A stretch of DNA of 64,000 nucleotides from an uncultured Dehalococcoidia bacterium (GTDB lineage: Bacteria; Chloroflexota; Dehalococcoidia; Lucifugimonadales; Australimonadaceae). The notes under the pieces were generated by a model, which was given only the letters and a program-made list of their open reading frames with translations, had not been told where the DNA came from and ran no database searches. Shown piece by piece: positions 3,328 through 55,843 of the stretch. The DNA is taken from NCBI GenBank assembly GCA_958295525.1, contig OY282355.1, positions 1,487,504 through 1,551,503 of the forward strand, given 5' to 3'. Numbering within the stretch: the stretch's first letter is position 1; each line of letters begins with the position of its first letter. The position numbers and the translations under genes were made by a program.

Positions 3328-3395
3328 ATCGGCGCGCAACGCGCCTTCTGGATTCCCGCCTTCGCGGGAGCGGTGGGCAAGGGGATTCCCGCCTG
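3328..3395. repeat. small cluster of palindromic intergenic repeats (GGCGCGCAACGCGCC hairpin plus two ATTCCCGCC cores)
   Basis: TTCCCGCCTTCGCGGGA at about 3353-3369 and GGATTCCCGCC at 3383-3393. Same family as the large arrays elsewhere in the window. Confidence 0.7.
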
Positions 3396-3559
3396 ATTAC
3401 ACCCCCTCTTGTTTGCGCGAAATCCGTCTTACCCTTCAACAACGAGCGAGAGCGATATGAGGAAAGCAAACGCTGTTGAGCGTTGCGCTGATTGACGATA
3501 ACGCCCGGCGAGTGGTAGCGTCTCCCCTCGGTTTGACAGCATTGAACAGGGAGAGTCTG

Positions 3560-11456: not shown

Positions 11457-11583
11457 CGGCGAGCGAGCCTCGTTGGACAGGGGGCTGCTCGGCGGCCCCC
11501 TATCTGTTCCGCGTCCGGGCCGTTCCGATAAGAGGCTAGGAGAACGGCAATGACCGCGCCGTCGTTCGTGAGGAGCGCGCCGC

Positions 11584-13848: not shown

Positions 13849-14327
13849 CGCATCGCCTCCGCCGCTTCTTCCACGGCCTCCACGATCTTCTTGTAGCCGG
13901 TGCAGCGGCAGACGTTCCCGCTCAGCGCGTCCTTGATCGTCTCCTCCGACGGCGCGGGGTCGGCGTCGAGCAGCGCTTTCGCGGCGAGCAGCATCCCCGG
14001 CGTGCAGAACCCGCACTGGAACGCCGCGTTGTTCACGAACGCCTCCGTGAGCGGAGCCGACCGCTCGTCCGCCGCAAGCCCCTCAACGGTGAGCACGGCC
14101 TTCCCCCGCGCCTCGAACGCCGGAAGCGTGCAGGAACTCACCGGCTGGCCGTCCAGCAGCACGGCGCAGGCGCCGCACACTTGCGCATCGCAGGAGCGCT
14201 TCGTTCCGGTCAAGCCGAACTCGCCGCGCAGCAGGTCTATGAGCGGCATGCGCGGCGCGACGGCGGCCTCCGCCTCCGCTCCGTTCAGCGTGAACCGCAC
14301 CGGAATCTCCGTCATCCCGTCAGGCAT
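13845..14327 (-). CDS. (2Fe-2S)-binding small subunit of molybdenum hydroxylase
   Basis: CDAQVCGACAV...C and QCGFCTPGM...CRCTGY cysteine motifs. The start is at 14327 or 14315. Confidence 0.88.
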   Translation of the reverse strand: MPDGMTEIPVRFTLNGAEAEAAVAPRMPLIDLLRGEFGLTGTKRSCDAQVCGACAVLLDGQPVSSCTLPAFEARGKAVLTVEGLAADERSAPLTEAFVNNAAFQCGFCTPGMLLAAKALLDADPAPSEETIKDALSGNVCRCTGYKKIVEAVEEAAEAMR

Positions 14328-15201
14328 CGCCGCCGCTCCCGTTCCGCCCCAGCGCGCGCAGAAGCGTCCGCTCCAAAAACACGCGCGCCAGATGCGCTTT
14401 GTAGTCCGCCTCGCCGTGCAGATCGGCGACCGCGTCCGCGTCCTCGGCGGCGAGACGGCAAGCCTCCCGGAGCGCCGGAGCGTCTGCGGCGAGCCCGTCC
14501 ACGCGCTCGCCGCGCAGAACGTCCTCCGAGCGCGGAAGGCGGCGCGCCACCGGCGAGACGCAGCCAATGGCGATCCTGACGTCCGCGACGCGCCCGTCCT
14601 CGACGGCGACCGCCGCCGCAACGCCGAGCGTCGGGCGGTGATGCCGCCCGAACTTGGAGTACGCGCCGCTCATTCCGGCGGGGAACGGCGGAACGCGGAC
14701 AGCGGTGACCATTTCGTCGGGCGCCAGCGAAGTCTCGTAGGAGTTCGTCTGCAACTCGCCCACCGGAATGCGGCGCGAGGCGGACGGCCCCTGCGCGTCC
14801 AACTCCGCCTCGTAAATCAGCAGAAGAGTCGCAGGATCGGAGTGCGGCTCCGCGAAGCAGAGGTTGCCCGCAAGCGTGCCGACGTTCCGCACCCGCGCGT
14901 TCGCCACGCTATGCTCAACCTCGGCGAGCAGCGGCAAGCGCTCGCGTGCGAGCGCATCGCGCTCGACTGCGCTGTGCGTCGCGCTTGCGCCGATGACGAC
15001 GCCCCTGTCGTCCGCGGCGACGGCGTCCAGCCCCGCGATGCTCTTCACGTTGATCAGCGCGTCGTAGGCGAGCAGCCCCGACTTCATCGCGAGCAGCAGT
15101 TCGGTGCCGCCCGCGTACAGCGCCGCCGCTCCGCTCTCCTGAGCGAGCAGCATGGCGGCCTCCCGCGGCGTGGACGGCTCATGCAAGCGAAAAGGCTTCA
15201 T
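14320..15201 (-). CDS. FAD-binding medium subunit of molybdenum hydroxylase (CoxM-like)
   Basis: MKPFRLHEPSTPREAAMLL....AALYAGGTELLLAMK is typical of FAD_binding_5. It is the first gene of the three-gene operon. Confidence 0.85.
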   Translation of the reverse strand: MKPFRLHEPSTPREAAMLLAQESGAAALYAGGTELLLAMKSGLLAYDALINVKSIAGLDAVAADDRGVVIGASATHSAVERDALARERLPLLAEVEHSVANARVRNVGTLAGNLCFAEPHSDPATLLLIYEAELDAQGPSASRRIPVGELQTNSYETSLAPDEMVTAVRVPPFPAGMSGAYSKFGRHHRPTLGVAAAVAVEDGRVADVRIAIGCVSPVARRLPRSEDVLRGERVDGLAADAPALREACRLAAEDADAVADLHGEADYKAHLARVFLERTLLRALGRNGSGGDA

Positions 15202-15249
15202 CGCGCAGGGATGCTACCTTGCTCAGCGAGCGAGGGCAAGCCACACCGC

Positions 15250-15440
15250 CACGTCATTCCCGCGTAGGCGGGAATCCAGAGGCGCGCCCCCGGACGCTGC
15301 GCGCAGCGCATCGTCTCCAAGTCCCCTCACGCGCCACGTCATTCCCGCGCAGGCGGGAACCTACTGGAAGCGCCCCACGCGCATGCGGCTCCCCGCCGGG
15401 GCGCGACGGGGGCGAGATTCCCGCCTACGCGGGCAGGGCG
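15250..15440. repeat. cluster of REP/BIME-like palindromic repeats in a divergent intergenic region
   Basis: Three cores (CGTCATTCCCGCGTAGGCGGGAATCC, CGTCATTCCCGCGCAGGCGGGAACC, and inverted GAGATTCCCGCCTACGCGGGCAGG), plus a GGACGCTGCGCGCAGCGCATCGTCTCC hairpin module. Confidence 0.8.
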
Positions 15441-15469
15441 GGGAACCGCTGTCTGCTAGCATTCGCGCT

Positions 15470-17233
15470 ATGAGCCCGGACGTCATTACGCAAGAGGTGA
15501 TCCGCGCGCGGGTGGACGGGATTATGCGAGAGATGCAAGCCGCCGTGATGCGGACAGGCTTCTCGACCATCATCCGCGAATCCCACGACTTCTCCGCCGG
15601 GATCACCGACCGCGACGGAAACACCGTCGGGCAGCATTCCGCCCTGCTCCAGCATCGCGGCGCGTACCCCGATTGCATCGCAGGCGTCCTCCGCCATTAC
15701 CCGCTCGACGAGATGGAGGACGGCGACTGCTTCCTCGTCTCCGACCCCTACTCGTCCGGCTGCCCGCACCCGAACGATATGGCCGTCGTGACCCCCGTCG
15801 TCTCCGAGGGCGAGATCATCGCGTTCTGCTCTTCGATGGGGCACAAGAGCGACATCGGCGGGCAGTCGCCGGGCAGCCGCAACGCCATCGCCCGCGACGT
15901 TTTCGGGGAAGGGTTGAACATTCCGCCCGTCCGCTTTCACGCGCGCCACGAGCCCGTCAAAGAGGTCGTCCAACTCCTCACGGCCAACAGCCGCGCGCCG
16001 GAACTCGTCATCGGCGACTTGAACGCGCAGGCCGGGGCGATGCACGCCATAGGAGCGCGCCGCCTCAAGGAACTGGCCGCGCAGTTCGGCGCGGGAACCG
16101 TGACCGCCGCGTTCGACGACGTCGCCCGCCGCACCGAAGCGCGCGTCCGCACCGCCATCCGCGAGTGGCCCGACGGCGCGGCGGAGGCCGAAGGCTTCGT
16201 GGACGACATCGTCGACAAAACGCAGGCCGTCCGCATCCATGTCCGCGTCGAGAAGGCAGGCGATGCGCTGACCGCCGACTTCTCCGGCTCCGACGATCAG
16301 AGCCCCGGCCCCATCAACGTCCGCCCGCCCTTCATCTACGGCATGGCGCACTTCGCCCTCATCGCAATGATCGACCCGAATCTGCCCGGCAACGCGGGGC
16401 TCGCCCGCTGCGTCGAGTTCCGGTTCCGCCCGGGCAGCGTCGTCAACCCGACCTACCCCGCCCCCACCGGCTTCTACTCGATGACGATTCCGGTTGTCGA
16501 GGACGTTCTCTTCGAGGCGATGAGCAAAGTGGCCGGTCGCCCGCTGGTCGCGCACAACGCGCCGCCGAATCTCGTCGTCATCGGCGGCGCCGCGGGCTCG
16601 GGCAAGCGTTACGTTCAGTACGAACTGCTGCGCTCCGGCAACGGCGCCTACGACGGCGGGGACGGCTGGACGGGAACGGCGCACTCCGCGAGCGGCGGCT
16701 CCAAATTCACGAGCGTCGAGATCATCGAGAGCGAGTTCGACGCGGAGGTCGAGCGGTTCGAGATCATTCCCGACTCCGGCGGCGCGGGGAAGCACCGGGG
16801 CGGCGCCGGTCTGCGGCGCGTCTACCGCGTGCATACCGAGAGCAGATTCGCGGGAGGCAATCCGCGCAACCTCCGCCCGCCCCACGGCCTCGCGGGAGGC
16901 GGAGACGGCGCGCCCGGCGGCGTGACGATAATCCATCCGCCCGCCGACGAACCCCGCGGCGCCGGCATTCCGTCAATCAGCGCCGCCTCATCCGGCGCTC
17001 CGGCGGGGACGAACGCCGAAACGCACGTCGGCCTCGTCTCCAACGTTCCGCTGCCCGCGGGGTGCGTTCTCGAGGCGCGCACGAGCGGGGCGGGAGGCGT
17101 CGGCGACCCAAAGGAGCGCTACCGCGCCAAAGTGGTCCGCGACCTCCGCAACGGCCTCATCACGGAGCGCGCTGCCGTCGAGGTGTACGGGCTCGACGCG
17201 CAGTCCGCCGCCGAGGCGCGAAGCATCCAGTAG
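15470..17233 (+). CDS. hydantoinase B/oxoprolinase family protein
   Basis: Start MSPDVITQEVIRARVDGIMREMQAAVMRTGFSTIIRESHDFSAGITDRDGN matches the HyuB N-terminus. No HyuA-like partner is adjacent. Confidence 0.85.
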   Translation: MSPDVITQEVIRARVDGIMREMQAAVMRTGFSTIIRESHDFSAGITDRDGNTVGQHSALLQHRGAYPDCIAGVLRHYPLDEMEDGDCFLVSDPYSSGCPHPNDMAVVTPVVSEGEIIAFCSSMGHKSDIGGQSPGSRNAIARDVFGEGLNIPPVRFHARHEPVKEVVQLLTANSRAPELVIGDLNAQAGAMHAIGARRLKELAAQFGAGTVTAAFDDVARRTEARVRTAIREWPDGAAEAEGFVDDIVDKTQAVRIHVRVEKAGDALTADFSGSDDQSPGPINVRPPFIYGMAHFALIAMIDPNLPGNAGLARCVEFRFRPGSVVNPTYPAPTGFYSMTIPVVEDVLFEAMSKVAGRPLVAHNAPPNLVVIGGAAGSGKRYVQYELLRSGNGAYDGGDGWTGTAHSASGGSKFTSVEIIESEFDAEVERFEIIPDSGGAGKHRGGAGLRRVYRVHTESRFAGGNPRNLRPPHGLAGGGDGAPGGVTIIHPPADEPRGAGIPSISAASSGAPAGTNAETHVGLVSNVPLPAGCVLEARTSGAGGVGDPKERYRAKVVRDLRNGLITERAAVEVYGLDAQSAAEARSIQ

Positions 17234-17296
17234 ATTCCCGCCTACGCGGGAATGACGGGGCAAGGGGGCGAGGTTCCCGCCTACGCGGGAATGACG
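17233..17296. repeat. two tandem palindromic repeat units
   Basis: GATTCCCGCCTACGCGGGAATGACGG and GGTTCCCGCCTACGCGGGAATGACGG, separated by 14 nt. Confidence 0.8.
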
Positions 17297-17361
17297 GCAA
17301 GCCCGGCGCGCCGCCCCTGAGCGTATACTCTCCGCGCAAGATGCCCGCAGGAGGCCGCGCG

Positions 17362-18432
17362 ATGCCCGTCGTTGACGCCGATACGCACGTGGACGAGAAC
17401 GAAGAGACATGGGCGTTCCTTCTGCCGGAGCACGAGCGCTTCCGCCCGCTCACCATATCGCCGCCCGACGGCTGGGTGGACCCGGCGCTGGCGCCGAAAG
17501 GCTACAACCGCTTCTGGAGCATTGACGGCGCGCTCCGCATCCGCCGCAACCGCGACGACGTCCGCACCGGCACGACGGTCGAGACGCGCGAACTGACGGA
17601 CGTGCCCGCCCGCCTCCGCGATATGGACCGGCTGGGCGTGGACGCGCAGGTGATGTACCCCACGCTCTTCCTGACCGCCGTCACCGCGAAGCCCGACGTC
17701 GAGTACGCGCTCGTCCGCTCCTACAACCGCTGGCTCGGCGCGAAGTCGGAGGAGAGCGGCGGACGCCTCCGCTGGGCCGCCGTTCCGCCCATCCTGAGTA
17801 TGGAGAAGGCCGCCGAGGAGTTGGAGTGGGCGCGGGCGCACGGGGCGTGCGGCGTGTTCAAGCGCGGCGTCGAGGCGGGCGGCAGGTCGGCGAGCGATCC
17901 GTACTTCTTCCCGCTCTACGAGGCCGCCCAGCGGTTGGATATGCCCATCTGCATCCATATCGCGGCGGGCGACCCTGCGGTCACCGACACGCTCTCGTCG
18001 CACCTCACGATGTACAACTTCAGCCTCTCGCCCATTGACGCCTTCATCTCAATGGTTACGGCGGGCCTGCCCGCCAAGTTCCCAAGCCTGCGGGTGGGCT
18101 TCATCGAAACGATGTCGTCTTGGGTTCCCTACGCGATGGCGGAACTGCAGGCGCGGCATGAGCGCTCCGGCTGGATGGGCGCGTTCGAGTTGGGGCAAGA
18201 CCTCATCCGGCAAGGGCGTTTCTACATCGCCTGCCAGACGCACGAAGACCTCCCCTATGTTCTGAAGACGACGGGCGAGGACAACCTCATCCTCGGGACG
18301 GACTACACGCACGCCGACCACTCCGCTGAGATCGAGGCGCACGCCATCCTGCGCCGCCGCGAGGATCTGCCCCCGCAAGCGGCGGAGAAGATCGTCCGCG
18401 ACAACCCTTCGCGGTTCTACGCGCTCGATTAG
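17362..18432 (+). CDS. amidohydrolase family protein (Amidohydro_2/ACMSD-like)
   Basis: ATG at 17362 after AGGAGG. MPVVDADTHVDE metal-binding start. ...LILGTDYTHADH near the C-terminus. Confidence 0.8.
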   Translation: MPVVDADTHVDENEETWAFLLPEHERFRPLTISPPDGWVDPALAPKGYNRFWSIDGALRIRRNRDDVRTGTTVETRELTDVPARLRDMDRLGVDAQVMYPTLFLTAVTAKPDVEYALVRSYNRWLGAKSEESGGRLRWAAVPPILSMEKAAEELEWARAHGACGVFKRGVEAGGRSASDPYFFPLYEAAQRLDMPICIHIAAGDPAVTDTLSSHLTMYNFSLSPIDAFISMVTAGLPAKFPSLRVGFIETMSSWVPYAMAELQARHERSGWMGAFELGQDLIRQGRFYIACQTHEDLPYVLKTTGEDNLILGTDYTHADHSAEIEAHAILRRREDLPPQAAEKIVRDNPSRFYALD

Positions 18433-19130
18433 GGCGCGTGGCGGCGCGGTAGCCGCCTGCGCGGGGCGCTTCCAGTAGTTCCCGCTTTCGCGGGAATGAC
18501 GTGGCGGTGTGGAGTGACTTGGAGACGGGGCGCTGCGGCGCCCGTCCGGGGGCGAGGTTCCCGCATGCAAGTGGGGGCGCTCCGAGTAGGTTCCTGCTTT
18601 CGCGGGAATGACGGCAAAGGAGGGGCGGGTAATTTGGAGACGGGGCGCGTTGCGCCCGTTCGGCGGCGAGGTTCCCGCCTACGCGGGAATGACGTGGCCA
18701 ACAGGTTCCCCGCGTGCGCGTGAGGACGCTCCCAGTAGGTTCCCGCCTACGCGGGAATAACGTGGCGCGTGGGGTGGTTGGAGACGATGCGTTGCGCGCA
18801 TCGTCCGGCGCTTGCGCGCCGACTGGATTCCCGCCTGCGCGGGAACCTACTGGGGCAGGGGGCGCTGCGCTGCGCGCCGCGTCTGGGGCGAGGTTCCCGC
18901 CTACGCGGGAATGACGGGGCAAGGGGGCGAGGTTCCCGCCTACGCGGGAATGACGGGGCCAGTAGGGGCGGGGATGGCGATGCGCTGCGCGCCCCGTCAA
19001 GGAGTGAGGATTCGCGGCGGCGCGGGAATGACGGAGATGAGGGCGCTTGCGCGCCGACTGGATTCCCGCCTACGCGGGAACGACGATTGCAAGAGGGCGG
19101 GGATTCCCGCCTGCGCAGGGATGACGAGCC
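18433..19130. repeat. largest array of mosaic palindromic repeats (about 12 cores in about 700 bp)
   Basis: Cores (G/A)(G/A)TTCCCGC-N4-GCGGGAA(T/C)GACG with loops CTAC, CTGC or TTTC. They are interleaved with GGAGACG(A/G)(G/T)GCG...CGTCC hairpins and GGCGCTTGCGCGCCGACTG modules. Confidence 0.85.
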
Positions 19131-19211
19131 CGATGGGGCGCCTGCCGCCCCGTTTATGCGGCCCGCCTGCGCCCGTTCACGGAACGCGGGGACGATGCGG
19201 GGCGCCCGCGC

Positions 19212-19240
19212 TTGCCGAGCGGCGGGCGGAGCGCTACTAT
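19212..19240 (+). promoter_or_regulatory. sigma70-like promoter upstream of etfB (TTGCCG-17 nt-TACTAT)
   Basis: TTGCCG at 19212-19217 and TACTAT at 19235-19240. The leader contains a direct repeat, GCTCAATTCCC...TGCCG twice (about 19254-19292). Confidence 0.4.
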
Positions 19241-19329
19241 GCTTGTTGCGCTCTTGCTCAATTCCCATTCCCTGCCGCTCAATTCCCTGCCGCAAGCCGC
19301 CCGCGAACGGGCGCGAGGTTATCGCGTAG

Positions 19330-20124
19330 ATGCCCCTTCACATCGTCGTTACGGCCAAGCAGACGCTCGACCCGGAGACGCCGCTCTCGGCCTTCCAAAT
19401 CGTGGACAACGCCGTCTCGACCGTCGGCAATATGCCGCCGGTGATCAACGGCTACGACGAGCAGGCCGTCGAGGCCGCGCTCCGCATCAAGGAGGCGAGC
19501 GGCGGCGAGGCGCGAGTCACCGTGCTCTCGTGCGGCACGGACTTCGCGCTGGACGTGATCAAGAAGCCGCTGGCGATGGGCGCGGACGAACTCGTGCTCC
19601 TGCAGGACGCGGCGTTCGACAACGCGATAGACCCCACGCTGACGGTCGCGGCGCTCGCCGCCGCCATCCGCAAACTGGGGAGCGTTGACCTCGTGATCTC
19701 CGGCAGGCAGGCGAGCGACTGGGACAACGCGCAGGTTCCGCTCGGCGTGGCCGAGGCGCTCGGCTGGCCGGTCGCCACGATTGGGCGGAAGGTGGAGATT
19801 CTCGACGGGTCGGTGCGCGTGGAGCGCGTTTTGCCGGACGGCCACGAGGTGGTCGAGGCGCCGCTTCCCGCCGTCGTCACCGTGTCGAACGAACTGGGGC
19901 AGGCGCGCTACCCGAATATGCGCGGCATTATGGCCGCCCGCCGCGTGCAGCCCACCGTGTGGAGCGCGGCCGACCTCGGCGTAGAGGCGGGGCGTCCCGC
20001 GTTCGAACTCCTCTCGCTCGCCAAGCCCGAGCGGGCCGCGCGGACGGAGATGATCGAGGGGGATTCGGAGGAAGAGGCGGGGCGCAAACTCGCGCTGCGC
20101 CTCAGAGAGGAGCGGATTCTCTGA
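19330..20124 (+). CDS. etfB: electron transfer flavoprotein subunit beta
   Basis: 264 aa. IVVTAKQTLDPE...NGYDEQAVEAALRIKE...VLSCG...GADELVLL is typical of EtfB. Confidence 0.9.
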   Translation: MPLHIVVTAKQTLDPETPLSAFQIVDNAVSTVGNMPPVINGYDEQAVEAALRIKEASGGEARVTVLSCGTDFALDVIKKPLAMGADELVLLQDAAFDNAIDPTLTVAALAAAIRKLGSVDLVISGRQASDWDNAQVPLGVAEALGWPVATIGRKVEILDGSVRVERVLPDGHEVVEAPLPAVVTVSNELGQARYPNMRGIMAARRVQPTVWSAADLGVEAGRPAFELLSLAKPERAARTEMIEGDSEEEAGRKLALRLREERIL

Positions 20125-21080
20125 TGGCGGACGCGCTGATCATCGGAGAGGCGGCGGGCGGAGCGCCCGCGTCGGCGGCGCTGGAGTGCATCGCGGCGGC
20201 GCGCTCGCTCGGCGTCGAGCGCGTGCATGCGCTGCTGACGGGCCCGGCGGCGGCAGCAGCAGCCCCGGGAGCCATCGCCGGGGGCGCGGACGCGGTCTAT
20301 ACGGCGGCGGACGCGGAGGAACTCGACGCTCAATTGGACGCGGCGCAGGCGGCGGCGGCGCAATCTGGCGCGCGCTACGTGCTCGGCGCGAAAACGCTCG
20401 CGGGGCGCGACGTGATGCCCCGGCTGGCGTTCCGGCTCGGGACGGCGCTCGCATCCGACTGCTCCTCCGTCGCGCTGGACGGCGAGGGGCGGCTCATTGC
20501 GACACGCCCCGTCTACGGCGGCGCCGCGGAGGCGGCGGTCGCCTGCCTGGGCGACCCGGCGGTCGCGTCGCTGCGCCCCAAGAGCGTTGACCCGCTGCCG
20601 CCGGACGCCTCGCGTTCGGGCGAGACGACGCCTCTGGCGTTCGAGGCGAACGTCCGGACGCGGACGCTGGAGCGCGTCGAGGAAGCCGGCGAGGGAGTCC
20701 GCATGGAGAACGCGCGGGTCGTCGTGTCGGGCGGGCGCGGGCTGGGCGGGCCGGAGCCGTTCGAGAACGAACTGCGGGAATTGGCGGATATGCTGGGCGG
20801 CGCGGTGGGCGCGTCGCGGGCGGCGTGCGACGCCGGGTGGGTTCCGGCGGGCTATCAGGTCGGCCTCACGGGCAAGACGGTGACGCCCGACCTCTACGTC
20901 GCGGTGGGCATATCGGGCGCGAGCCAGCATATGGCGGGGTGCGGGAACGCGAAGACGCTCGTGGCGATCAACAAAGACGCGGGGGCCAACATCTTCAAGG
21001 AGGCGCGGTTCGGCGTCGCCGGAGACTGGCGGAAGGTTCTGCCCGCGTTCATTGAGCAGTTGCACGAACTGATGGGGTAA
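20124..21080 (+). CDS. etfA: electron transfer flavoprotein subunit alpha
   Basis: ATG at 20124 overlaps the etfB TGA (TGATG). C-terminal FAD-binding motif GASRAACDAGWVPAGYQVGLTGKTVTPDLYVAVGISGASQHMAG. Confidence 0.9.
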   Translation: MADALIIGEAAGGAPASAALECIAAARSLGVERVHALLTGPAAAAAAPGAIAGGADAVYTAADAEELDAQLDAAQAAAAQSGARYVLGAKTLAGRDVMPRLAFRLGTALASDCSSVALDGEGRLIATRPVYGGAAEAAVACLGDPAVASLRPKSVDPLPPDASRSGETTPLAFEANVRTRTLERVEEAGEGVRMENARVVVSGGRGLGGPEPFENELRELADMLGGAVGASRAACDAGWVPAGYQVGLTGKTVTPDLYVAVGISGASQHMAGCGNAKTLVAINKDAGANIFKEARFGVAGDWRKVLPAFIEQLHELMG

Positions 21081-21141
21081 GATAGAAGGAGCGCGGGCTT
21101 ATATGGCGCGCGCCCTCCAAATGGCGAGCGGAGGCAGCGAA

Positions 21142-21588
21142 ATGGCGGACTACGACTACGACCGCGAAATGGCGGAGGCGATAGAGCACGCCGAGACGGC
21201 GGAGGTGGTCTGCGTCATTCTCCCGCAGATCAACCAGTGCCTCGTCTACGACGGGCGGAGCGCGGCGAACGACCCGCCCCGTATCTCCGTTTCGCCTCCG
21301 CTGGGGTCGGGCGAGCGCAGGCTGCGCCACGTGAACCGCGCGCGCCCGAATATGCCCAACGCCCGCGAACTCGCCGTGCTGCCTTGGGTCAACTCCATCC
21401 GCAGTTTCGAGGAGTCCGGGGTCTGGGAGATGCTGCGGGGGCGTATGCGCGCCTCCGGTTTCAAGGGGACGGAAGCGCAGTGCGGCGAGGCGATGGACGA
21501 GATGCGGCAGTGGGAGCGGCGCTCCAACGTGGCGATGATTCGCGGGCAGGGCCCCTACCACACTCTCTGGTCGCGCAACGGCTCCTAG
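21142..21588 (+). CDS. hypothetical protein
   Basis: ORF directly after etfA. The ATG at 21142 is preceded by GGAGG with 6-nt spacing. No recognisable domain. Confidence 0.35.
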   Translation: MADYDYDREMAEAIEHAETAEVVCVILPQINQCLVYDGRSAANDPPRISVSPPLGSGERRLRHVNRARPNMPNARELAVLPWVNSIRSFEESGVWEMLRGRMRASGFKGTEAQCGEAMDEMRQWERRSNVAMIRGQGPYHTLWSRNGS

Positions 21589-21654
21589 CCGGGGCGCCGG
21601 CCCGCGAATGCGGGATTTCCGCCCGCGCGCGGGCGTGAATGTGAGCGCGCCGAG

Positions 21655-21663
21655 TGGTACAAT
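21655..21663 (+). promoter_or_regulatory. extended -10 element TGgTACAAT
   Basis: TG at 21655-21656 and TACAAT at 21658-21663, about 117 nt upstream of the 21781 ORF. Confidence 0.35.
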
Positions 21664-21780
21664 GCCATTGCTCGAGGAGGCCGCTGCCGACGGTCCTAAC
21701 CGCGTGGACGGGAACCGAGCAAGCGCCGAAGCGCCTCTCTAGCGAGGCCGCCGCAAGGTCTCCTCATACAGGACACGGCT

Positions 21781-22221
21781 ATGGTGATTTCCGAAACGCC
21801 CATTGAGAGCCACGCGGTTCACCGCGACCGCTTGCTAGACCACGCGCGGCGAATGCTCCGCGACGGCGACAGGCTGCAGGCGTCCGAGAAGATCTGGGGC
21901 GCGGCGTCGCACGGACTGAAAGTCGTGGCGGACAGCCGCGACTGGCCGTACACCTTGCACGCGGACGGCAGAGTCATCGCCGCGCATCTGGGCAAATTGA
22001 CGAACAACAGGAACATTCCCCTGCTGTTCAGCCACATGGAGGGGCTGCACCGGAACTTCTACTCGGACTCGTTCTCGCTGCAAGAGATCGAAGATCGTTT
22101 GCCGTATGCCGACGAGTTCCTGCGGCTCATCGAAGCCGCCGACCTCGGCGTCGCGCCGGACGCGCCGTCGCCGGACGACCCTCAGTACCTCCGCCGCCAC
22201 CCGCGGCGAACGCAAGACTAA
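21781..22221 (+). CDS. PaREP1-like (HEPN-superfamily) protein
   Basis: ASEKIWGAASHGLKVVADSRDW....H......HLGKL.......LFSHMEGLHRNFYSDSF matches, from memory, the PaREP1 pattern (AsEKaWgAa..AvKa.a.....H........A..LH.NFYe). Confidence 0.5.
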   Translation: MVISETPIESHAVHRDRLLDHARRMLRDGDRLQASEKIWGAASHGLKVVADSRDWPYTLHADGRVIAAHLGKLTNNRNIPLLFSHMEGLHRNFYSDSFSLQEIEDRLPYADEFLRLIEAADLGVAPDAPSPDDPQYLRRHPRRTQD

Positions 22222-22304
22222 ACAAACCAACATCCGCGCGCGGCGGCGCGCTCAGGCTAGGCAATCTCACGACGCGGCGGGGCGGACCCGCCGAGGCAGG
22301 CAAA

Positions 22305-22559
22305 ATGGCGTATCAGGTCTACTTCGCAAACCTCTCCGAGGAGAACAAAGCCCTCTCGCTCGCGCTCCTCCGGCTCAAAGAGGAGGCGGGCGGCATCGAG
22401 CCCGACGAGGCGAAACTCCTCGAAGAGTTGCGCGGCTCCCCCACTCCCTGGCCGCAGGCGCCCGACGAGCCTGCGCCCCGCCACTACGGGCGCAACAACC
22501 GCAACCGCAGCCCTCGCCGCGGCCCCCAAAACGGCCGCGCGCACCGGATGGACGTGTAG
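22305..22559 (+). CDS. small hypothetical protein
   Basis: 84-aa ORF with a helical-looking N-terminal half and a basic tail. Competes with an antisense ORF. Weak call. Confidence 0.3.
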   Translation: MAYQVYFANLSEENKALSLALLRLKEEAGGIEPDEAKLLEELRGSPTPWPQAPDEPAPRHYGRNNRNRSPRRGPQNGRAHRMDV

Positions 22560-22854
22560 GAAGTCGCGGCGGCGGCGGCGCTTCCGCCAACTTCAGGCGC
22601 TCGTCCGCGTTCATCTTCACCAGTTCCGGAACGCCTGCGGCGATGACCTGCGGGCGCGCTCCGCCCTTCCGTCGTAGTTCCATCGGCAGGTCGCCGCCGG
22701 ATGATAAGGCGCGCTTACGCGCAGGCGAATCCGCTTCCTCGCGCTTAGGCGGACGCCTAAACTTTGGACGGAAACGCCAATTGCCTGCCGGATTAGGCCC
22801 GCAAGGCGCCCGTTGCGCGCCGCGTGAGGCGTCCGGCCTCGGAGGGCGCGCCTT

Positions 22855-23157
22855 ATGAAGATCACGCAAATCGCCGATTACAGCCTGCCCGCGCAAGGGG
22901 GGCTTCCGCCAACGCAGAATATGGTGTACGAGGAACTGATGCGCCGGCCCGACGAGGTGTTCGAGTATCAGGGCGAGGAACTCATCCGCACGTTCCCCCG
23001 AATGAAGCGCTCCGCGCTCAACTGGTCGCTATGGCTGCTCGCCAAGACGGGGCATATCGGCAAGTTGCGCGTGCGCGTGGACGGGCGGCTCACGACGGTC
23101 TACGGCGCCCACGAGGCGATTCTCGCCCTCAAGGAGCGCGTGGGGCTCGACAACTAG
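22855..23157 (+). CDS. small hypothetical protein, possibly winged-helix
   Basis: 100-aa ORF. ...SALNWSLWLLAKTGHIGKLRVRVDGRLTTVYG resembles a recognition helix plus wing. Shares a CTAG stop overlap with the convergent DUF971 gene. Confidence 0.4.
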   Translation: MKITQIADYSLPAQGGLPPTQNMVYEELMRRPDEVFEYQGEELIRTFPRMKRSALNWSLWLLAKTGHIGKLRVRVDGRLTTVYGAHEAILALKERVGLDN

Positions 23158-23462
23158 CCCGCGCCGCCGCCGAGTTCGCGCAGCAGTTTGTAGGGATAGA
23201 TTCCCGTCTCGTGAAGGTCGCTGAAGAGCAGGCCGACGGCGTAGCGCCCCATCTCGAGGCAATCCTCCACCGTGACGTCCGACGGAACGTCTTCCACGCC
23301 GACGCGCCGCGCGCGGGTCATCTCGTCCACGCACTGAGCGCAGCCGCAATGCCCCCGCAGGTAGCGGTGCGGCAGCAGCGACTCGACGCCGTCTTTCCAG
23401 ACGATATGCAATCCGTCCGGCGTGATGTCCAGCGATTGGGGTTCGTACTGATCTTCCGCCAT
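23154..23462 (-). CDS. DUF971 domain protein (gamma-butyrobetaine hydroxylase-like N-terminal domain)
   Basis: LHIVWKDGVESLLPHRYLRGHCGCAQC........VEDCLEMGRYAVGLLFSDLHETGIYPYKLLREL matches the DUF971 pattern. Start taken at MAEDQ (23462). Confidence 0.75.
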   Translation of the reverse strand: MAEDQYEPQSLDITPDGLHIVWKDGVESLLPHRYLRGHCGCAQCVDEMTRARRVGVEDVPSDVTVEDCLEMGRYAVGLLFSDLHETGIYPYKLLRELGGGAG

Positions 23463-23569
23463 TCCGGTTCTCTCACGATGACCGTATTTTACCATGTTGC
23501 AGCAGCGAGAATTTCCCGCCCGCGCCGCAGCGCCGCAATCCCTTCCCTACAGGTGGTAGCCTTGCGCTG

Positions 23570-24670: not shown

Positions 24671-24694
24671 GCCGCATGCACACGGGCCAAACGC

Positions 24695-26761: not shown

Positions 26762-26829
26762 AGCGGGAGTGTAGGCGCGCCCAGGCCTGCGGTCAACTTT
26801 GCGCTACAAGAGGAACGAGCGCTGGGTCT

Positions 26830-26875
26830 GGGATGGGTTCCCGCCTGCGCGGGCAAGAGGGAGGTTATGCAAGGT
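26830..26875. repeat. single palindromic core with a TTATGCAAGG extension
   Basis: GGTTCCCGCCTGCGCGGGCAAGAGGGAGGTTATGCAAGG. A near-identical composite is found at 55716-55762. Confidence 0.6.
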
Positions 26876-26878
26876 TTG

Positions 26879-27787
26879 TCACAGGCTCGCCGCGTAGAGT
26901 CCGGCGGCTAGCGACAGCCCCGTCCACCCGTGGAGTTTGGCGGTTCGGACGAGCAGACGGTTCATCGCGGCGCGGTCACCGGCGGCGAAGAGCGCCCGCG
27001 ACGCGCCAACCGCCCAGGGCGCGGGGGCGAGCGCGAGCAGCGCCCACGCGCTCAGCGCGCCGAACGCGACCGCCCCCGCGACGCTGACGTAGGCCGCCGC
27101 CAGCATCCCCGCGTACAGCCAACGCGACGCCCGAACGCCCACCGCCGACGCGATGCTGCGCTTCCCCGCATCCCGATCCTCTTCTATGTCGCGCAGATTA
27201 TTGACGTGTAAAATCGCAGTGACGACGAAGGCCACGGGCAGCGCGGCGTAGAACGGCGCGGCGGCGAGCGTCTCGCGCTGCACGTAGTACGACGCCGCCA
27301 CCATCAGCAAACCCATAAACACGAACACGACCGGCTCGCCGAGCCCGAGCGTCCCCAGCGGCTTCGGCCCCCCCGCGTAGAAATACGCCGCCGCGACGCT
27401 CGCCAGCCCCGCCGCGAGGATCGGCCAGCCCGTCTGCGCGACGATGATCAGCCCCGCGGCGACGCCGTAGCCAAACGCGACCGCCATCCCCACGGCGACC
27501 GCGCGCTCCGAGAGCAGTCCGCGCTGAATGACTTTGTGGGGCGCGAGGAACTTGCCCGCGCCCCCGCCCTTCCGGTGGTCGGCGTACTCGTCGGTGAGAT
27601 TCGTTCCGATCTGAATGGCGACGGAGCCGGTGAGCGCCAGCGCGAACAGCAGCCAGTCGAGCGGGCCGTCTCCCGCCGCCAGCGCCGTCCCCACCAGCAC
27701 GGGCGCAACCGCCGCCGACAGCGAGAACGGGCGCGCCGCCCAAAACCAAGAAACGACGGGGTTTTGCGTTGCGGGGAGCGTGGTCAT
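26879..27787 (-). CDS. menA: 1,4-dihydroxy-2-naphthoate polyprenyltransferase (UbiA family)
   Basis: WFWAARPFSLSAAVAPVLVGTALA...GTNLTDEYADHRKG and a polytopic 302-aa profile are typical of MenA. Confidence 0.8.
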   Translation of the reverse strand: MTTLPATQNPVVSWFWAARPFSLSAAVAPVLVGTALAAGDGPLDWLLFALALTGSVAIQIGTNLTDEYADHRKGGGAGKFLAPHKVIQRGLLSERAVAVGMAVAFGYGVAAGLIIVAQTGWPILAAGLASVAAAYFYAGGPKPLGTLGLGEPVVFVFMGLLMVAASYYVQRETLAAAPFYAALPVAFVVTAILHVNNLRDIEEDRDAGKRSIASAVGVRASRWLYAGMLAAAYVSVAGAVAFGALSAWALLALAPAPWAVGASRALFAAGDRAAMNRLLVRTAKLHGWTGLSLAAGLYAASL

Positions 27788-27803
27788 AGGCGAAATCGGC
27801 CAA

Positions 27804-28469: not shown

Positions 28470-28478
28470 AGCGTCCCC

Positions 28479-31861: not shown

Positions 31862-31901
31862 CACCGCTTCCGCGGCAAGCGGTCGGCGGCCCCCCTCCCT
31901 C

Positions 31902-31926
31902 CGTCATTCCCGCGCAGGCGGGAATC
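31902..31926. repeat. single palindromic repeat core
   Basis: CGTCATTCCCGCGCAGGCGGGAATC, followed by a C-rich run. Confidence 0.75.
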
Positions 31927-32001
31927 TGCTGCAATCGTCAACCCCCTCCCCCCCCCTTTGCGGTATGCTAAGCCGCGCCCTTTGGATCAGGAGGAACCGA
32001 A

Positions 32002-37019: not shown

Positions 37020-37585
37020 CGCCCTTCCCTCGCCCCCTGCCCCGTCATTCCCGCGTAGGCGGGAATCTCGCCCCCTGGCGGGAGCGCATCGCATCGCCCT
37101 TCCCGCCCCTTGCCGTCATTCCCGCGTAGGCGGGAATCCAGTCGGCGCGCAGCGCCCCCCTGCCCCGTCATTCCCGCGTAGGCGGGAACCTCGTCCCCTG
37201 ACGTGGCGCGTAGCGCAATCGCCCTGCCCGCCCACCTCATCGTCATTCCCGCGTAGGCGGGAATCTCGCTCCCCTGATGGGAGCGCATCGCATCGCCCTT
37301 CCCGCGCCCCCACCTTGTCGTCATTCCCGCGTAGGCGGGAATCCAGTCGGCGCGCAAGCGCCGGACGGGGCCGCAACGCGCCCCGTCTCCAAAGCGCCCC
37401 ACCCGCCACGTCATTCCTGCGAAAGCAGGAACCTACTGGTGCAATCGTCATTCCCGCGTAGGCGGGAACCTCGCCCCTGGCGGGAGCGCGTCGCATCGCC
37501 CTTCCCGCGTCCCCCTTGCCGTCATTCCCGCCCACCTCATCGCCCTGCCCGCCTACGCGGGAACCCAGGCGGCGCGCCGCCCCGA
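37020..37585. repeat. array of about 9 palindromic repeat cores, opposite orientation to the 18.4-19.1 kb array
   Basis: CGTCATTCCCGCGTAGGCGGGAA(T/C)C units at about 40-80 bp spacing, with GGACGGGGCCGCAACGCGCCCCGTCTCC and CAGTCGGCGCGCA(A)GCGCC modules. Lies between divergent genes. Confidence 0.85.
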
Positions 37586-37684
37586 TTCGCCCCAATGCGA
37601 CACTTGCCCCTTCCGCAATAAACGCCTCGTTCCCTAACCTCGCCTGCGACCTGGCGGAACAGCCGAAAACGAAGGAGGCGAACA

Positions 37685-40222: not shown

Positions 40223-40343
40223 ATGCCTGGCAGTGACCTATTTTCCCAGCAAGTCGCCCTGCCAGTATCGTCGGCGCTGGAACGTTTCACTTCCGTGTTC
40301 GGGATGGGAACGGGTGGGGCCGCTCCGCTCCAACCACCAGGCA
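40223..40343 (-). rRNA. rrf: 5S ribosomal RNA
   Basis: The minus-strand sequence TGCCTGGTGG...CCCACCCGTTCCCATCCCGAACACGGAAGTGAAACG...GCGCCGACGATACTGGCAGGG...CACTGCCAGGCAT aligns along its length with the E. coli 5S pattern (CCGAAC..GAAGTGAAAC, terminal helix TGCCTGG/CCAGGCA). About 121 nt. Confidence 0.88.
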
Positions 40344-44883: not shown

Positions 44884-44904
44884 GCGCAGCGCGCTCCGTC
44901 CAGA

Positions 44905-45206
44905 GGGCGGGGTTCCCGCTTTCGCGGGAATGACGTGGCGCGTGGGGTGGTTTGGAGACGAGGCGCGTTGCGCCTCGTCCGTGCGAGGGGCGAGATTCCC
45001 GCCTGCGCGGGAATGACGGGGCCAGTAGGTTCCTGCTTTCGCAGGAATGACGTGGCGTGTGGGGCGCTTTGGAGACGATGCGCTACGCGCCTCGTCCGGC
45101 GCTTGCGCGCCGACTGGATTCCCGCCTACGCGGGAATGACGGAATTGGGGGGCGGATCGCGCCTGCGCGGGAACGACGGGACAGGGGGCAGGGTTCCCGC
45201 CTACGC
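44905..45206. repeat. array of about 6-7 mosaic palindromic repeats between convergent genes
   Basis: GGTTCCCGCTTTCGCGGGAATGACG, GGAGACGAGGCGCGTTGCGCCTCGTCC, GATTCCCGCCTGCGCGGGAATGACG, GGTTCCTGCTTTCGCAGGAATGACG and others. The last, truncated copy overlaps the mgtE stop codon. Confidence 0.85.
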
Positions 45207-49779: not shown

Positions 49780-49975
49780 CGGGATGCGCTGCGCGCTGCG
49801 TGCGGGGGCGAGGTTCCCGCCTGCGCGTGAACGACGGAGATGGGGGGGGGGACGGCGGCGGCAGGGGCGAGATTCCCGCCTACGCGGGAATGACGGAGAT
49901 GGGGGGCGGGAACGGCACCGTCAGGGGGCGAGGTTCCCGCCTACGCGGGAATGACGATGGAGTGCGGGAACGACG
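49780..49975. repeat. cluster of three palindromic repeat cores
   Basis: GGTTCCCGCCTGCGCGTGAACGACGG, GATTCCCGCCTACGCGGGAATGACGG and GGTTCCCGCCTACGCGGGAATGACG at about 60-bp spacing. Confidence 0.8.
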
Positions 49976-49993
49976 GAAGGAAGGGGACGGGCG

Positions 49994-52371: not shown

Positions 52372-52557
52372 TCGTTCCCGCCCCCTGCCCCGTCATTCCC
52401 GCGTAGGCGGGAACCTCGCCCCCGCTCCGTCATTCCCGCGAAGCAGGAACCTATTGGCCCCGTCATTCCCGCGTAGGCGGGAATCTCGCCCCCTGCTCCG
52501 TCATTCCTGCGAAGCAGGAACCTCCCACCCCGTCATTCCCGCGCAGGCGGGAACCCG
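52372..52557. repeat. array of five palindromic repeat cores at about 35-bp spacing
   Basis: CGTCATTCCCGCGTAGGCGGGAACC, CGTCATTCCCGCGAAGCAGGAACC, CGTCATTCCCGCGTAGGCGGGAATC, CGTCATTCCTGCGAAGCAGGAACC, CGTCATTCCCGCGCAGGCGGGAACC. Confidence 0.85.
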
Positions 52558-52633
52558 CCGCAGGGCGCTATAATGGCCTCGCGCCTGTGGGCGGCGGGGC
52601 CCGCACGCGCGCTACGAGAATGCGCAACGCCTA

Positions 52634-54221: not shown

Positions 54222-54485
54222 CCTGTCCTGTCATTCCCGTAGGTGGGAATCTCGCCCCCTGTCCCGTCATTCCCGCGTAGGCGGGAATCCAGCGGCGCGC
54301 CAGCGCCGGACGAGGCGCGTAGCGCCTCGTCTCCAAATTCACCCCAGGCGCCACGTCATTCCCGCGAAAGCGGGAACCTACTGCCGCGCCCCTGCGAAAG
54401 CGGGATCCTACCGGATAACGCCATTCCTCCCATCGCCGTCCCCGCCCCCCATCGTCATTCCCGCGTAGGCGGGAATCTCGCCCCC
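54222..54485. repeat. array of about five palindromic repeat cores between convergent genes
   Basis: TGTCATTCCCGTAGGTGGGAATC, CGTCATTCCCGCGTAGGCGGGAATCC, GGACGAGGCGCGTAGCGCCTCGTCTCC, CGTCATTCCCGCGAAAGCGGGAACC, CGTCATTCCCGCGTAGGCGGGAATC. Confidence 0.85.
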
Positions 54486-54488
54486 GGA

Positions 54489-55613
54489 TCAGCCCGACCC
54501 GACGCCCTCGACGGCGAACCGCTCCTCCTCAGGAGGCGAGGCTTGCTCGCGCTCGTTCCATCCCCAGCAGGCGGCTGCTCCGTCGGCGCCGAGCGCGCAG
54601 GAGAAGGCTCCGCCGCTGCTGACGGCGGAGAAGTTCCGGCCTTGCGGAGGCGACGTCTGGCCATATGGGTCGTCTCCCCAGCAGACGGGCGAACCGTCGG
54701 GGCGGAGCGCGCAAGTGTGCGCCCCGCCTGCGCTGACGGACGCGAACCGCTCGCTCTCCGGCGGCGACGCCTGCCCCCATAAGTCCCGTCCCCAACACAC
54801 GGGCGCGCCGTCGGGACGGAGCGCGCACGTGTGCTCCCCGCCTGCGCTGACGGACGCGAACCGCTCGCCTTCCGGCGGCGACGCTTGGCCGGAGGTATCG
54901 TCTCCCCAGCAGACCGGCGAGCCGTCAGGGCGGAGCGCGCACGTATGCGAGTCGCCTGCGCTGATGGCCGCAAACTGCTCGCCCTTCGGCGGCGACGCTT
55001 GGCCGAATTGGTCGTCCCCCCAGCAAACGGGAACGCCGTTGAGCCGGATCGCGCAGGAGTGCCCCAAGCCGCCTCTGACGTCTGCGAACCGCTCGCCTTC
55101 CGGCGGCGACGCCTGGCCGGAGCCATCGTCTCCCCAGCAGACCGGCGAGCCGTCGGCAAGAAGCGCGCACGTGTGGAAACCGCCGACGCTGACGGACACG
55201 AACTTTTGCCCCTGCGGGGGCGCCGTTTGGCCGAATTCGCTGTCTCCCCAGCAGACGGGCGAGCCGTCGGGAAGGAGCGCGCAGGCGTGCAACCCGCCGG
55301 CGCCGATGGCCGAGCGCCTGAGCGGCGCGCGGTACGAAGAGGGCGTCGGCGTCGAGTCAGGCGCCGGACCCGGCGTGGAAGTCGGCGCGGAGGCGGAGGT
55401 TGGCGTCGGAGTCAACGCCTGCGTGGTTGCGGAGGTTGGCGTCGGAGTCAACGCCTGCGCGGTTGCAGAGGTTGGCGTCGGCGCGGTTGCGGAAGTCGGC
55501 GCGATGGTTGGCGTCGGAGTGGGCGTAGGTTCCGACCGGCAAGCGGCGAACGCCGACAGCGAAGCGGCAGCGAAAAGCAAGAAGGCGGCGAGGCCGAGCA
55601 TATTGCCTAGCAT
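54489..55613 (-). CDS. RCC1-like repeat lipoprotein
   Basis: Start MLGNMLG at 55613. Lipobox SAFAAC-R and a Pro/Thr linker. Seven to eight repeats of about 37 aa: F..VS.G..HTCALRPDGSPVCWGDD..GQASPP.GE. Confidence 0.75.
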   Translation of the reverse strand: MLGNMLGLAAFLLFAAASLSAFAACRSEPTPTPTPTIAPTSATAPTPTSATAQALTPTPTSATTQALTPTPTSASAPTSTPGPAPDSTPTPSSYRAPLRRSAIGAGGLHACALLPDGSPVCWGDSEFGQTAPPQGQKFVSVSVGGFHTCALLADGSPVCWGDDGSGQASPPEGERFADVRGGLGHSCAIRLNGVPVCWGDDQFGQASPPKGEQFAAISAGDSHTCALRPDGSPVCWGDDTSGQASPPEGERFASVSAGGEHTCALRPDGAPVCWGRDLWGQASPPESERFASVSAGGAHTCALRPDGSPVCWGDDPYGQTSPPQGRNFSAVSSGGAFSCALGADGAAACWGWNEREQASPPEEERFAVEGVGSG

Positions 55614-55843
55614 AGCCCAGCCGGGGGCGGCGCTGCGAGGCAATTCATCAGCGGCGAAGGAACGATTTGGAGCGCGGATTTCGCGGTGAGAAGATAGCCG
55701 CGCCGCGCTGGTGCGCCTCCGATTCCCGCCTACGCGGTCAAGGTGGAAATTATGCAAGGCTCCGCATGCGGAAAGGTTCTACATGCGGAAAATGCGACAC
55801 GCGCCCCTTGCGCGGTCGGCGCTCGCCCGGCGACGATAGGCGT

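Follow-up and report, generated by a model that had tools for sequence, protein, structure and literature searches.

The intergenic regions of the DNA analysed here, a 64,000-nucleotide stretch (hereafter the window; C1:1487504-1551503 of genome G000) from an uncultured Dehalococcoidia bacterium, carry a dense family of palindromic repeats, including those in the spacer at 18433-19130. We consider it likely that these repeats are Ssn-related motifs (SRMs), the group that takes in the NTS, dRS3 and CGTC-1 REP elements, that they are accompanied by an Ssn-type partner nuclease, and that they have been expanded into arrays in G000 with the effects on the chromosome proposed below. The source genome is a single contig of 2,512,416 bp with a G+C content of 67.7% and a completeness of 96.5%. 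Its 16S rRNA gene (G000 2,363,203-2,364,665) is 81-83% identical to those of two Dehalococcoidia metagenome-assembled genomes (MAGs) and 73-76% identical to those of other phyla.

Each repeat is centered on an 18-bp core, TTCCCGC-N4-GCGGGAA, which was scored either as an exact match or with up to two mismatches allowed. The window has 29 exact cores (none in 100 shuffles) and 41 cores with two or fewer mismatches (0.83 expected), which form 12 clusters; the arrays amount to 2.67 kb, or 4.2% of the window. A first-pass annotation of the window, made from the sequence alone, had put the number of copies at about 45-50, which is slightly generous, and the coverage at 4-5 percent, which agrees with our measurement. 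All of the clusters that it listed exist, but a copy that it placed near 39365 fails the two-mismatch threshold. Its figure of about 12 cores for 18433-19130 was right, since 10 cores with two or fewer mismatches occur there and two degenerate ones are visible in the sequence. An Rfam scan of the window at the gathering threshold matched a 5S rRNA and no repeat family.

The repeat unit and its abundance

Across the genome there are 1013 exact cores, 1253 with at most one mismatch and 1447 with at most two, about 30-33 of the last being chance matches. The family comprises about 1,400 copies and is dispersed, as the first-pass annotation had proposed, rather than a duplication local to the window. 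Genes were called by a purpose-made codon-likelihood method, which is an approximation (2167 genes, 84.6% coding). By this annotation 93% of the cores are intergenic, in 448 spacers of every orientation class, and the 508 clusters cover 84 kb, equal to 3.4% of the genome and about one fifth of its non-coding DNA. Most of the two-mismatch matches that lie deep within good genes are chance matches in coding sequence, and the true units found inside open reading frames (ORFs) are the product of over-extended gene calls. The recurring peptides IPAYAGMT, SFPRRRES and RHSRVGGN, previously suspected of marking spurious ORFs, are indeed frame translations of the unit and are present in such over-extended ORFs.

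When copies are oriented by their flanks, the consensus on one strand is GGGGGCGAG(A/G)-TTCCCGC-CT(A/G/T)C-GCGGGAA-TGACG-GGGCAAGGGGG. The reverse strand, here called the NTS strand, reads CGTCA-TTCCCGC-GYAG-GCGGGAA-YC, or CGTCA-TTCCCGC-G(T/C/A)A(G/A)-GCGGGAA-(T/C)C when the loop variants are included. Stem positions are conserved at 94-99% in G000, the TGACG tail at 75-97%, and the G located two bases 5' of the stem at 91%. Read on the NTS strand, the four tag positions C-G-T-C are conserved at 0.97/0.96/0.86/0.94 and the C after the palindrome at 0.91, and the positions further out at 0.3-0.6. The unit forms a hairpin with an 8-bp stem and a 4-nt loop that folds as single-stranded DNA (ssDNA) with -9.6 to -10.1 kcal/mol (z of about -3). 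The outermost pair of this stem is A:T in 58% of the copies, and the others have G there.

Cores located no more than 200 bp apart have the same orientation in 775 of 852 neighbouring pairs (91%), and thus the arrays run head-to-tail. The uniform orientation that had been noticed within the clusters of the window therefore holds genome-wide. The shortest composite unit, of about 39 bp, consists of the core and a G-rich linker of 20-22 nt. A unit of about 52 bp has a linker with a small hairpin, GGCGC-TT-GCGCC, and one of about 88 bp has a linker with a further hairpin, GGAGACGA.GCGC-loop-GCGC.TCGTCC. Either strand of the composite units folds into predicted hairpins as ssDNA. The two additional hairpin modules had been recognised from the window and do exist, but not as independent families. 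Nearly all of their copies (96-100%) are located within 120 bp of a core, which makes them parts of longer units. A CRISPR-like reading of the arrays was rejected because the apparent spacers are one G-rich consensus linker rather than unique sequences.

Correspondence with Ssn-related motifs

The NTS, an extended form of dRS3 with the sequence CGTCATTCCCGCGMAVGCGGGAATCYRG, has been generalised to the SRM family (PMC11893778). Its partner SsnA is a 94-aa single-domain GIY-YIG nuclease that binds the motif as an ssDNA hairpin and makes its cut on the motif-bearing strand, a few nucleotides to the 5' side; the complement, double-stranded DNA and RNA are not substrates (PMC11893778). Cutting depends critically on the three bases 5' of the palindrome, and binding on the C that immediately follows it. 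Genes for Ssn proteins are typically flanked by motifs, and 81% of the genomes with more than 200 motifs carry ssn (PMC11893778).

The non-stem positions that are conserved in G000 are exactly those critical for cutting or binding by SsnA (PMC11893778). Copies with GCAG, GAAG or GAAA loops fit the NTS consensus fully. Moreover, the exact 25-mer CGTCATTCCCGCGCAGGCGGGAATC is common to Neisseria, Kingella, Legionella and many Alpha-, Beta- and Gammaproteobacteria, and it is also found in Planctomycetota, Nitrospirota, Bacteroidota and named Dehalococcoidia MAGs.

A candidate Ssn nuclease

A search of G000 for the GIY-YIG domain (PF01541) recovered UvrC and three small genes, all of the latter outside the window. 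The best of these is an intact ORF of 102 aa at G000 994,998-995,303(-), which matches PF01541 with 53 bits. Without an 8-residue N-terminal extension the protein has 94 aa, and the spacing of its residues Y14/Y25/E72 (11 and 58) is that of Y6/Y17/E64 in meningococcal SsnA (PMC11893778). From its sequence we infer that it belongs to cd10448. The gene is bracketed by two inverted cores: the upstream one, at a distance of 51 bp, has its NTS on the coding strand, and the downstream one, at 12 bp, has it on the opposite strand, such that the CGTC tags point outwards from the gene. The same layout, [CGTCA-hairpin]-gene-[hairpin-TGACG], is present at most homologues in genomes of the genus and in a named Dehalococcoidia MAG. 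A search of 120 NTS-bearing loci from other phyla (0.89 Mb) recovered six proteins homologous to the candidate, all encoded no more than about 150 bp from an NTS. A search of PDB sequences with the candidate gave a distant UPF0213 match only, NCBIfam held nothing informative for the small GIY-YIG proteins, and PADLOC had no match for the candidate.

The second small gene is a paralogue at the contig end (about 2,511,990-2,512,416) that diverges after the residues KKW and looks C-terminally broken. It adjoins units with TTTC loops, and the related genome G008, in which TTTC loops are four times commoner, has three intact copies of this paralogue type. The third encodes a 127-aa protein (G000 3467-3850) with weak Cho/UvrC-like matches. 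Two variant hairpins (TGACCGCG....CGCGGGAA) come before this gene, and a standard array of four units comes after it. This gene and the variant hairpins may constitute a second nuclease-repeat pair.

Distribution among relatives

The tagged motif occurs in all 21 other genomes of the genus, with counts from 1 to 837. Single-contig relatives have 837 (G003), 734 (G008), 114 (G004) and 88 (G002) copies, and because all four are single contigs these differences in copy number are real. In 400-kb samples there are 0.45-0.58 cores per kb in G000, G003 and G008 and 0.07 in G004; in these samples the CTAC loop and head-to-tail arrays occur only in the high-copy trio G000, G003 and G008. Homologues of ssn are present in 16 of the 21 congeners and are intact in all three high-copy genomes, and the congener with a single copy of the motif carries an ssn pseudogene. 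Of the 301 genomes sampled from the class, 54 contain one copy or more. The runner-up in this sample has 139 copies compared with 816 in G000, and the repeat density of G000 is about six times the next highest.

Comparison with known repeat systems

G000 is an extreme, array-forming member of the known SRM/NTS-Ssn system in a new host lineage. It shares with the NTS-SsnA pair a near-identical motif of 23-28 nt (CGTCATTCCCGC-N4-GCGGGAATC) with the same orientation-giving positions, and a small single-domain GIY-YIG gene with equal catalytic spacing that is bracketed by inverted motifs. Also shared are the hundreds of mostly intergenic copies and their strong lineage-specific expansion. The present system differs in its host, a MAG of the Dehalococcoidia (Chloroflexota), in its density of about 0.58 cores per kb, in its major loop, GTAG, in the head-to-tail stacking of copies in 39-, 52- and 88-bp units, and in being known from sequence alone.

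The CGTC-1 family (Di Nocera, De Gregorio and Rocco 2013, BMC Genomics 14:522), which has been equated with Neisseria dRS3 (PMC3733652), has the CGTC tag, a 4-nt loop and loop subfamilies in common with the G000 repeats, as well as an 8-bp stem that begins with AT and the lack of an associated transposase gene; in none of the species was a transposase found to be linked to CGTC repeats (PMC3733652). In that family head-to-head dimers are the rule and head-to-tail pairs are negligible, whereas 91% of pairs here are head-to-tail. Clusters are rare except in Neisseria and Wolbachia, and Chloroflexota is not among the five phyla listed for CGTC repeats (PMC3733652). The usual tail of CGTC-1 is CCA, unlike the CTCGCC (C(T/C)CGCC) of the G000 units. 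The CCA tail and head-to-head dimers are descriptive rather than defining features of CGTC-1, and its Neisseria members also cluster.

Neisseria dRS3 elements and Neisseria intergenic mosaic elements (NIMEs) resemble the G000 repeats in having the palindrome ATTCCCGC-N4-GCGGGAAT, in forming large mosaic clusters between genes, with other short repeats interspersed, and in a proposed link to recombination and genome plasticity. However, dRS3 is also the target of an IS110-type phage recombinase, and a search of G000 for the IS110 transposase (PF01548) found none. In addition, the interleaved modules of G000 are extra hairpins of one composite unit, unlike those of NIMEs. We know of no description of gene-order scrambling in Neisseria on the scale seen in G000.

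Growth of the arrays and constraint on the core

Linkers of adjacent units have a mean edit distance of 3.6, compared with 4.25 for non-adjacent units of the same array and 6.0 for units of different arrays (p of about 1e-24), and 16 of 130 adjacent linkers are identical. Thus, the arrays extend by local tandem duplication. Linkers differ by 17-29% (about 17% when adjacent), yet 70% of cores are perfect, which indicates that the core is under constraint or subject to conversion. Where both positions of a stem pair have changed, Watson-Crick pairing is kept in 30 of 32 cases, most of which represent one variant, TTCCTGC-N4-GCAGGAA (C:G to T:A), with 25 copies genome-wide. Two of these are in the window at 45030-45047 and 37414-37431, both with a TTTC/GAAA loop.

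These features can be arranged into a plausible history. A lineage-specific burst, represented by the CTAC loop subfamily of the three high-copy genomes, would have seeded intergenic sites, after which the arrays would have lengthened through local tandem duplication by slippage or unequal exchange. The combination of a near-invariant core and drifting G-rich linkers suggests selection or conversion for a sequence-specific interaction, most simply binding by Ssn.

Placement and orientation

In co-directional spacers the arrays begin a median of 44 bp past the upstream stop codon and end 100 bp ahead of the next start, and they are closer to the gene 3' end in 196 of 254 such spacers (p = 1e-18). 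In divergent spacers they keep about 120 bp away from start codons, and 88 of 300 divergent, promoter-containing spacers have cores. The first-pass annotation had asked whether the repeats associate with gene ends or promoters, and a 3'-end association is borne out by the co-directional spacers. It had also suggested a role in termination. No T-run follows any of the hairpins, the unit running instead into a G-rich or C-rich linker, and a scan for intrinsic terminators found no terminator-like site within 18433-19130. A role as intrinsic terminators is therefore not supported.

The bias of the repeats relative to the direction of transcription is weak (418 vs 300). Their orientation agrees better with the sign of the local coding GC skew, at 65-67% of arrays in G000 (Fisher p 8e-13 to 4e-9) and at 71% (p = 3e-4) in the low-copy genome G002, where the skew is regular. 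Because the coding-strand skew is about zero, gene direction does not explain this link. In most bacteria the G-rich strand is the leading strand. If that is the case here, the leading-strand template would be the one that preferentially carries the cleavable NTS strand. In about two thirds of the arrays the cleavable strand would be on the C-rich strand, taken as the leading-strand template, which is less exposed as ssDNA. Such a bias would fit avoidance of self-cleavage on the exposed lagging-strand template.

Shuffling of gene order

A 15.5-kb stretch of the window (within 11500-27000) maps to eight places that are megabases apart in G003 and in G008, and three of its breakpoints are the arrays at 15.3, 17.25 and 18.4-19.1 kb. 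Gene order was also compared between pairs of genomes. In the pair with a low repeat load (G004 to G002, with 1.6 Mb of G002 covered; median gene identity 89.7%), 287 orthologues fall into 15 blocks with a median of 13 genes. Adjacency is kept there at 84% of spacers of at least 60 bp without repeats, at 88% of array spacers and at 98% of spacers shorter than 60 bp. At nearly the same identity (89.0%), the high-load pair G008 to G000 has 138 blocks for 233 orthologues with a median block of one gene (1.3 kb), and the corresponding proportions are 27%, 14% and 68%. For G003 to G000, also a high-load pair (86.5% identity), there are 125 blocks for 235 orthologues with a median of two genes, and adjacency is kept at 31%, 4% and 74%, respectively.

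Array spacers are broken more often than other spacers of at least 60 bp (pooled odds ratio of kept adjacency 0.28, p = 9e-8, from counts that are not fully independent). In the two high-copy comparisons, cores are present in at least one genome at 57-63% of broken junctions and at 13-40% of kept ones. The coding GC skew is regular in G002 and G004, whereas its sign flips at about half of the 50-kb steps in G000, G003 and G008. Thus the repeat burst and the operon-scale shuffling coincide in one subclade, and the relationship is a correlation only.

A smaller-scale example may be provided by contig ptg002461l of metagenome sample ERZ19489113 (L004, ena:ERZ19489113:s2110, 22.6 kb), which is 96-98.6% identical to G000 and encodes an amidohydrolase protein identical to one at window positions 17362-18432. 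The 15.1 kb of this contig that were analysed form a mosaic of five segments that lie far apart in G000. The six cores in it are all located at three of the four junctions, and for three junctions cores are present at both of the G000 partner loci. Across four arrays, the 2.53-Mb circular contig of ERZ19489113, from a sister strain, remains collinear with G000, and this lends local support to the G000 assembly. Between these two sequences a 6.7-kb tract (window 14750-21500) has a single difference, with flanks that are about 1.5% different, and the three arrays compared are identical and all inside the tract. The pattern points to a recent recombination event that covered all three arrays. Elsewhere in the comparison, the sister-strain contig (L003 20412-20594) lacks, or has other sequence in place of, a segment of about 520 bp (window 27786-28476, with a low-scoring 185-aa ORF at 27804-28361).

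The dispersed arrays may act as break-and-join points, or may accumulate at such points, and this would account for the operon-scale shuffling of gene order in the high-copy subclade.

Orphan terminase-like genes

Self-comparison of G000 revealed a multi-copy 2-kb family consisting of eight intact genes for proteins resembling the terminase large subunit (TerL). All are outside the window, at G000 C1 136201-137877, 361227-363074, 715475-717229, 851032-852549, 1004602-1006230, 1281531-1283327, 1784889-1786679 and 2276707-2278428. The proteins match phrog_2 (E = 9e-44), and their matches in Pfam are weak and of helicase type only; Walker A-like, Walker B-like and RNase-H-like nuclease motifs are visible. 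Identity among seven of the copies is 85-95%, the eighth is more divergent (61%), and all eight have different neighbourhoods. Each is inside a head-to-tail array whose NTS strand is the coding strand, and nucleotide homology between copies stops within the arrays. G000 has one portal gene.

High-copy genomes have 3-7.5 TerL-like genes per Mb, compared with 0-0.6 in low-copy genomes. More than 1,600 relatives of the family exist, and the source names shown are Chloroflexi/Chloroflexota MAGs. These relatives stand alone among cellular genes, several large contigs hold more than one, and in three other genomes there is at most one core near the TerL-like gene. PADLOC had no match for a near-identical homologue. 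An 18-mer of the TTCCTGC..GCAGGAA type with a GGAG loop is located inside the TerL-like genes of two other Chloroflexota genomes (L290 5448, L293 4797). Several other multi-copy DNA segments of G000 are accounted for by a C-terminal module of about 110 aa (...RFFLH..PER..DLP..R..HGFDNL.F.FFL.G..FDGKC.A...LP.Y...S.RTGQ...), which is found on two large proteins with unrelated N-terminal regions (G000 610705-613173 and 345672-347939, outside the window).

It is possible, though on balance doubtful, that the Ssn-hairpin system is a genome-shuffling engine in this one Dehalococcoidia subclade, in which about 500 dispersed arrays, nicked by Ssn when single-stranded, would serve as break-and-rejoin points that relocate operon-sized cassettes, perhaps with help from the TerL-like proteins.

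Arrays in the window

The main array (18467..19146) combines 39-bp, 52-bp and approximately 88-bp composite units. Nine of its cores have the TGACG tail on the + strand, and thus its NTS strand is the - strand. It lies after the amidohydrolase gene, which stops at 18432, and before etfB, which starts at 19330; the gap from the stop codon to the first core is 47 bp, and the last core is about 210 bp short of the etfB start. TRF reports a period of 39 at 18885-18959 with 100% matches inside this array. Upstream of it, a two-unit array with a 39-bp period (17223..17316, NTS strand -) begins 2 bp past the stop codon of the hydantoinase B gene (17233). A three-core array in a divergent spacer (15245..15460) has its NTS strand on the + strand for two cores, and the third is ambiguous.

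The eight-core head-to-tail array at 37036..37588 (NTS strand +) has units of 52-95 bp (TRF period 75) and is located between a CoA-transferase gene (-) and a Mg-chelatase-like gene (+). A five-core array (44901..45198, -) occupies a convergent spacer between an MFS transporter gene and mgtE. Three further arrays have three cores each: 49802..49976 (-), with a 59-bp period by TRF, 52384..52578 (+), with a 70-bp period by TRF, and 54258..54500 (+), which is flanked by an arylsulfotransferase gene and an RCC1-repeat gene. The remaining units are solitary. The one at 31895..31949 (+) has a GCAG loop and exactly matches the Neisseria NTS core, and those at 26826..26880 (-), 55711..55765 (-, degenerate) and 3341..3395 (degenerate, orientation ambiguous) have one, two and one mismatches, respectively.

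A tandem DNA repeat of 114/342 bp at 54639-55312 in the same region corresponds to the RCC1 repeats of a 267-aa protein (54489-55292(-)). The 5S rRNA gene of the window (40225-40341, -) stands alone. The single 16S gene found is about 0.84 Mb away, and thus the rRNA genes are unlinked.

Alternative explanations

The mosaic clusters had initially been described as BIME-like, with a RAYT gene as their expected partner. Short GC-rich extragenic palindromes, mosaic clusters near gene ends and the presence of GTAG/CTAC in the unit would all suit classical REP/BIME elements mobilised by such an IS200/IS605-like Y1 transposase, and in outline the two systems are alike: a small dedicated nuclease, encoded between copies of the repeat, recognises an extragenic hairpin in ssDNA, and the hairpins are located near gene 3' ends. 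However, the REP-BIME-REPIN/RAYT systems of E. coli and Pseudomonas use an HUH/Y1 enzyme and a GTAG tag rather than GIY-YIG and CGTC, and in G000 GTAG/CTAC is the loop and not the terminal tag. REPINs and BIMEs are inverted or alternating, whereas the G000 arrays are direct. PF01797 has no matches in G000 at E<=1 although the control genomes were positive, and in no species has a transposase been found linked to CGTC repeats (PMC3733652). We therefore regard this explanation as extremely unlikely. A role mainly at the RNA level, as hairpins in 3' untranslated regions that stabilise mRNA or that pause or terminate transcription, with the Ssn link incidental, is not exclusive with the Ssn explanation. 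It would account for arrays a median of 44 bp past stop codons and about 100-120 bp from starts, for stable hairpins with a conserved stem and a compensated variant, and, because such hairpins would work in either orientation, for the weak transcription bias. It does not account for the lack of T-runs and terminator-like sites in the array region, for the cores in 88 of 300 divergent promoter-containing spacers, or for an orientation that follows replication-type skew rather than transcription. Furthermore, the non-palindromic CGTC tag and the flanking C match the stem in conservation, yet a plain RNA hairpin needs neither, and SsnA is inactive on RNA (PMC11893778). These facts make a primary RNA function decidedly improbable.

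The arrays might instead be passive DNA now, left by an old burst of selfish hairpins and then shaped by neutral slippage and recombination, with Ssn inactive or irrelevant and the shuffling due to something else, such as a small population size in a host-associated lineage. We judge this to be unlikely. Perfect cores (70%) amid linkers that have diverged by 17-29% speak for continuing constraint or conversion, ssn is an intact ORF that retains its catalytic residues, and the confinement of the CTAC subfamily and the array habit to the high-copy subclade suggests a recent burst. Cores are also more frequent at broken than at kept junctions. In favour of passivity, relatives retain 80-90 copies without any ssn gene, the arrays of the 6.7-kb tract are identical in two strains and show no fast turnover there, and adjacency is often broken at repeat-free spacers too. 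A further scheme makes the arrays the recombination ends of cassettes moved by the co-amplified orphan TerL-like ATPase-nuclease, with Ssn as a bystander. The eight intact, array-embedded copies whose homology ends in the arrays, the single portal gene and the parallel rise of TerL-like density (3-7.5 compared with 0-0.6 per Mb) speak for it. Nevertheless, no activity or precedent is known, the solitary homologue in other Chloroflexota has at most one nearby core, and with arrays in a quarter of all spacers and a general shuffling of cassettes any duplicated gene would come to be flanked by arrays. This scheme is very unlikely to be correct.

Several observations weigh against the assignment of the repeats to an Ssn system or against the effects that we propose. 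Compared with the NTS consensus, the dominant loop has one deviating base (GTAG instead of GMAV) and the 3' flank has CTCG in place of CYRG. The candidate Ssn has no match in the N. lactamica NS19 and N. mucosa drafts, where the GIY-YIG genes are of the YhbQ type (encoding a 91-aa protein, with no dRS3 nearby) or UvrC. Two single-contig relatives keep 84-91 copies without a detectable ssn, and several other genera have ssn homologues and none of the exact motif, so the link between gene and repeat is statistical. The seeding of new sites lacks a demonstrated mechanism because Ssn is known only to cut; the study of the enzyme shows cutting and an effect on transformation only (Chenal et al. 2025, Nat Commun 16:2388; PMC11893778). 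The assignment of strands from skew assumes that an excess of G over C marks the leading strand. The link to shuffling is a single clade contrast, and relaxed selection could have permitted repeats and rearrangements alike. A role linked to transformation as in Neisseria is conceivable, since G000 has genes for ComEC and DprA, but these are too widespread to serve as evidence for it.

Significance

In these MAGs, the arrays explain mis-extended gene calls and many spurious ORFs, such as those encoding the peptides IPAYAGMT and SFPRRRES. If the Ssn-hairpin system is indeed a shuffling engine, this would explain why gene order has been reduced to blocks with a median of one gene at 89% identity, compared with the collinear low-copy sisters. 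The genus is a natural experiment, in that equally diverged sister lineages with single-contig genomes show an approximately 10-fold difference in repeat load and also differ in array habit, in the regularity of GC skew and in the conservation of gene order. It therefore makes two questions testable, namely whether a burst of Ssn hairpins can reshape chromosomes, and whether replication constrains the orientation of such hairpins.

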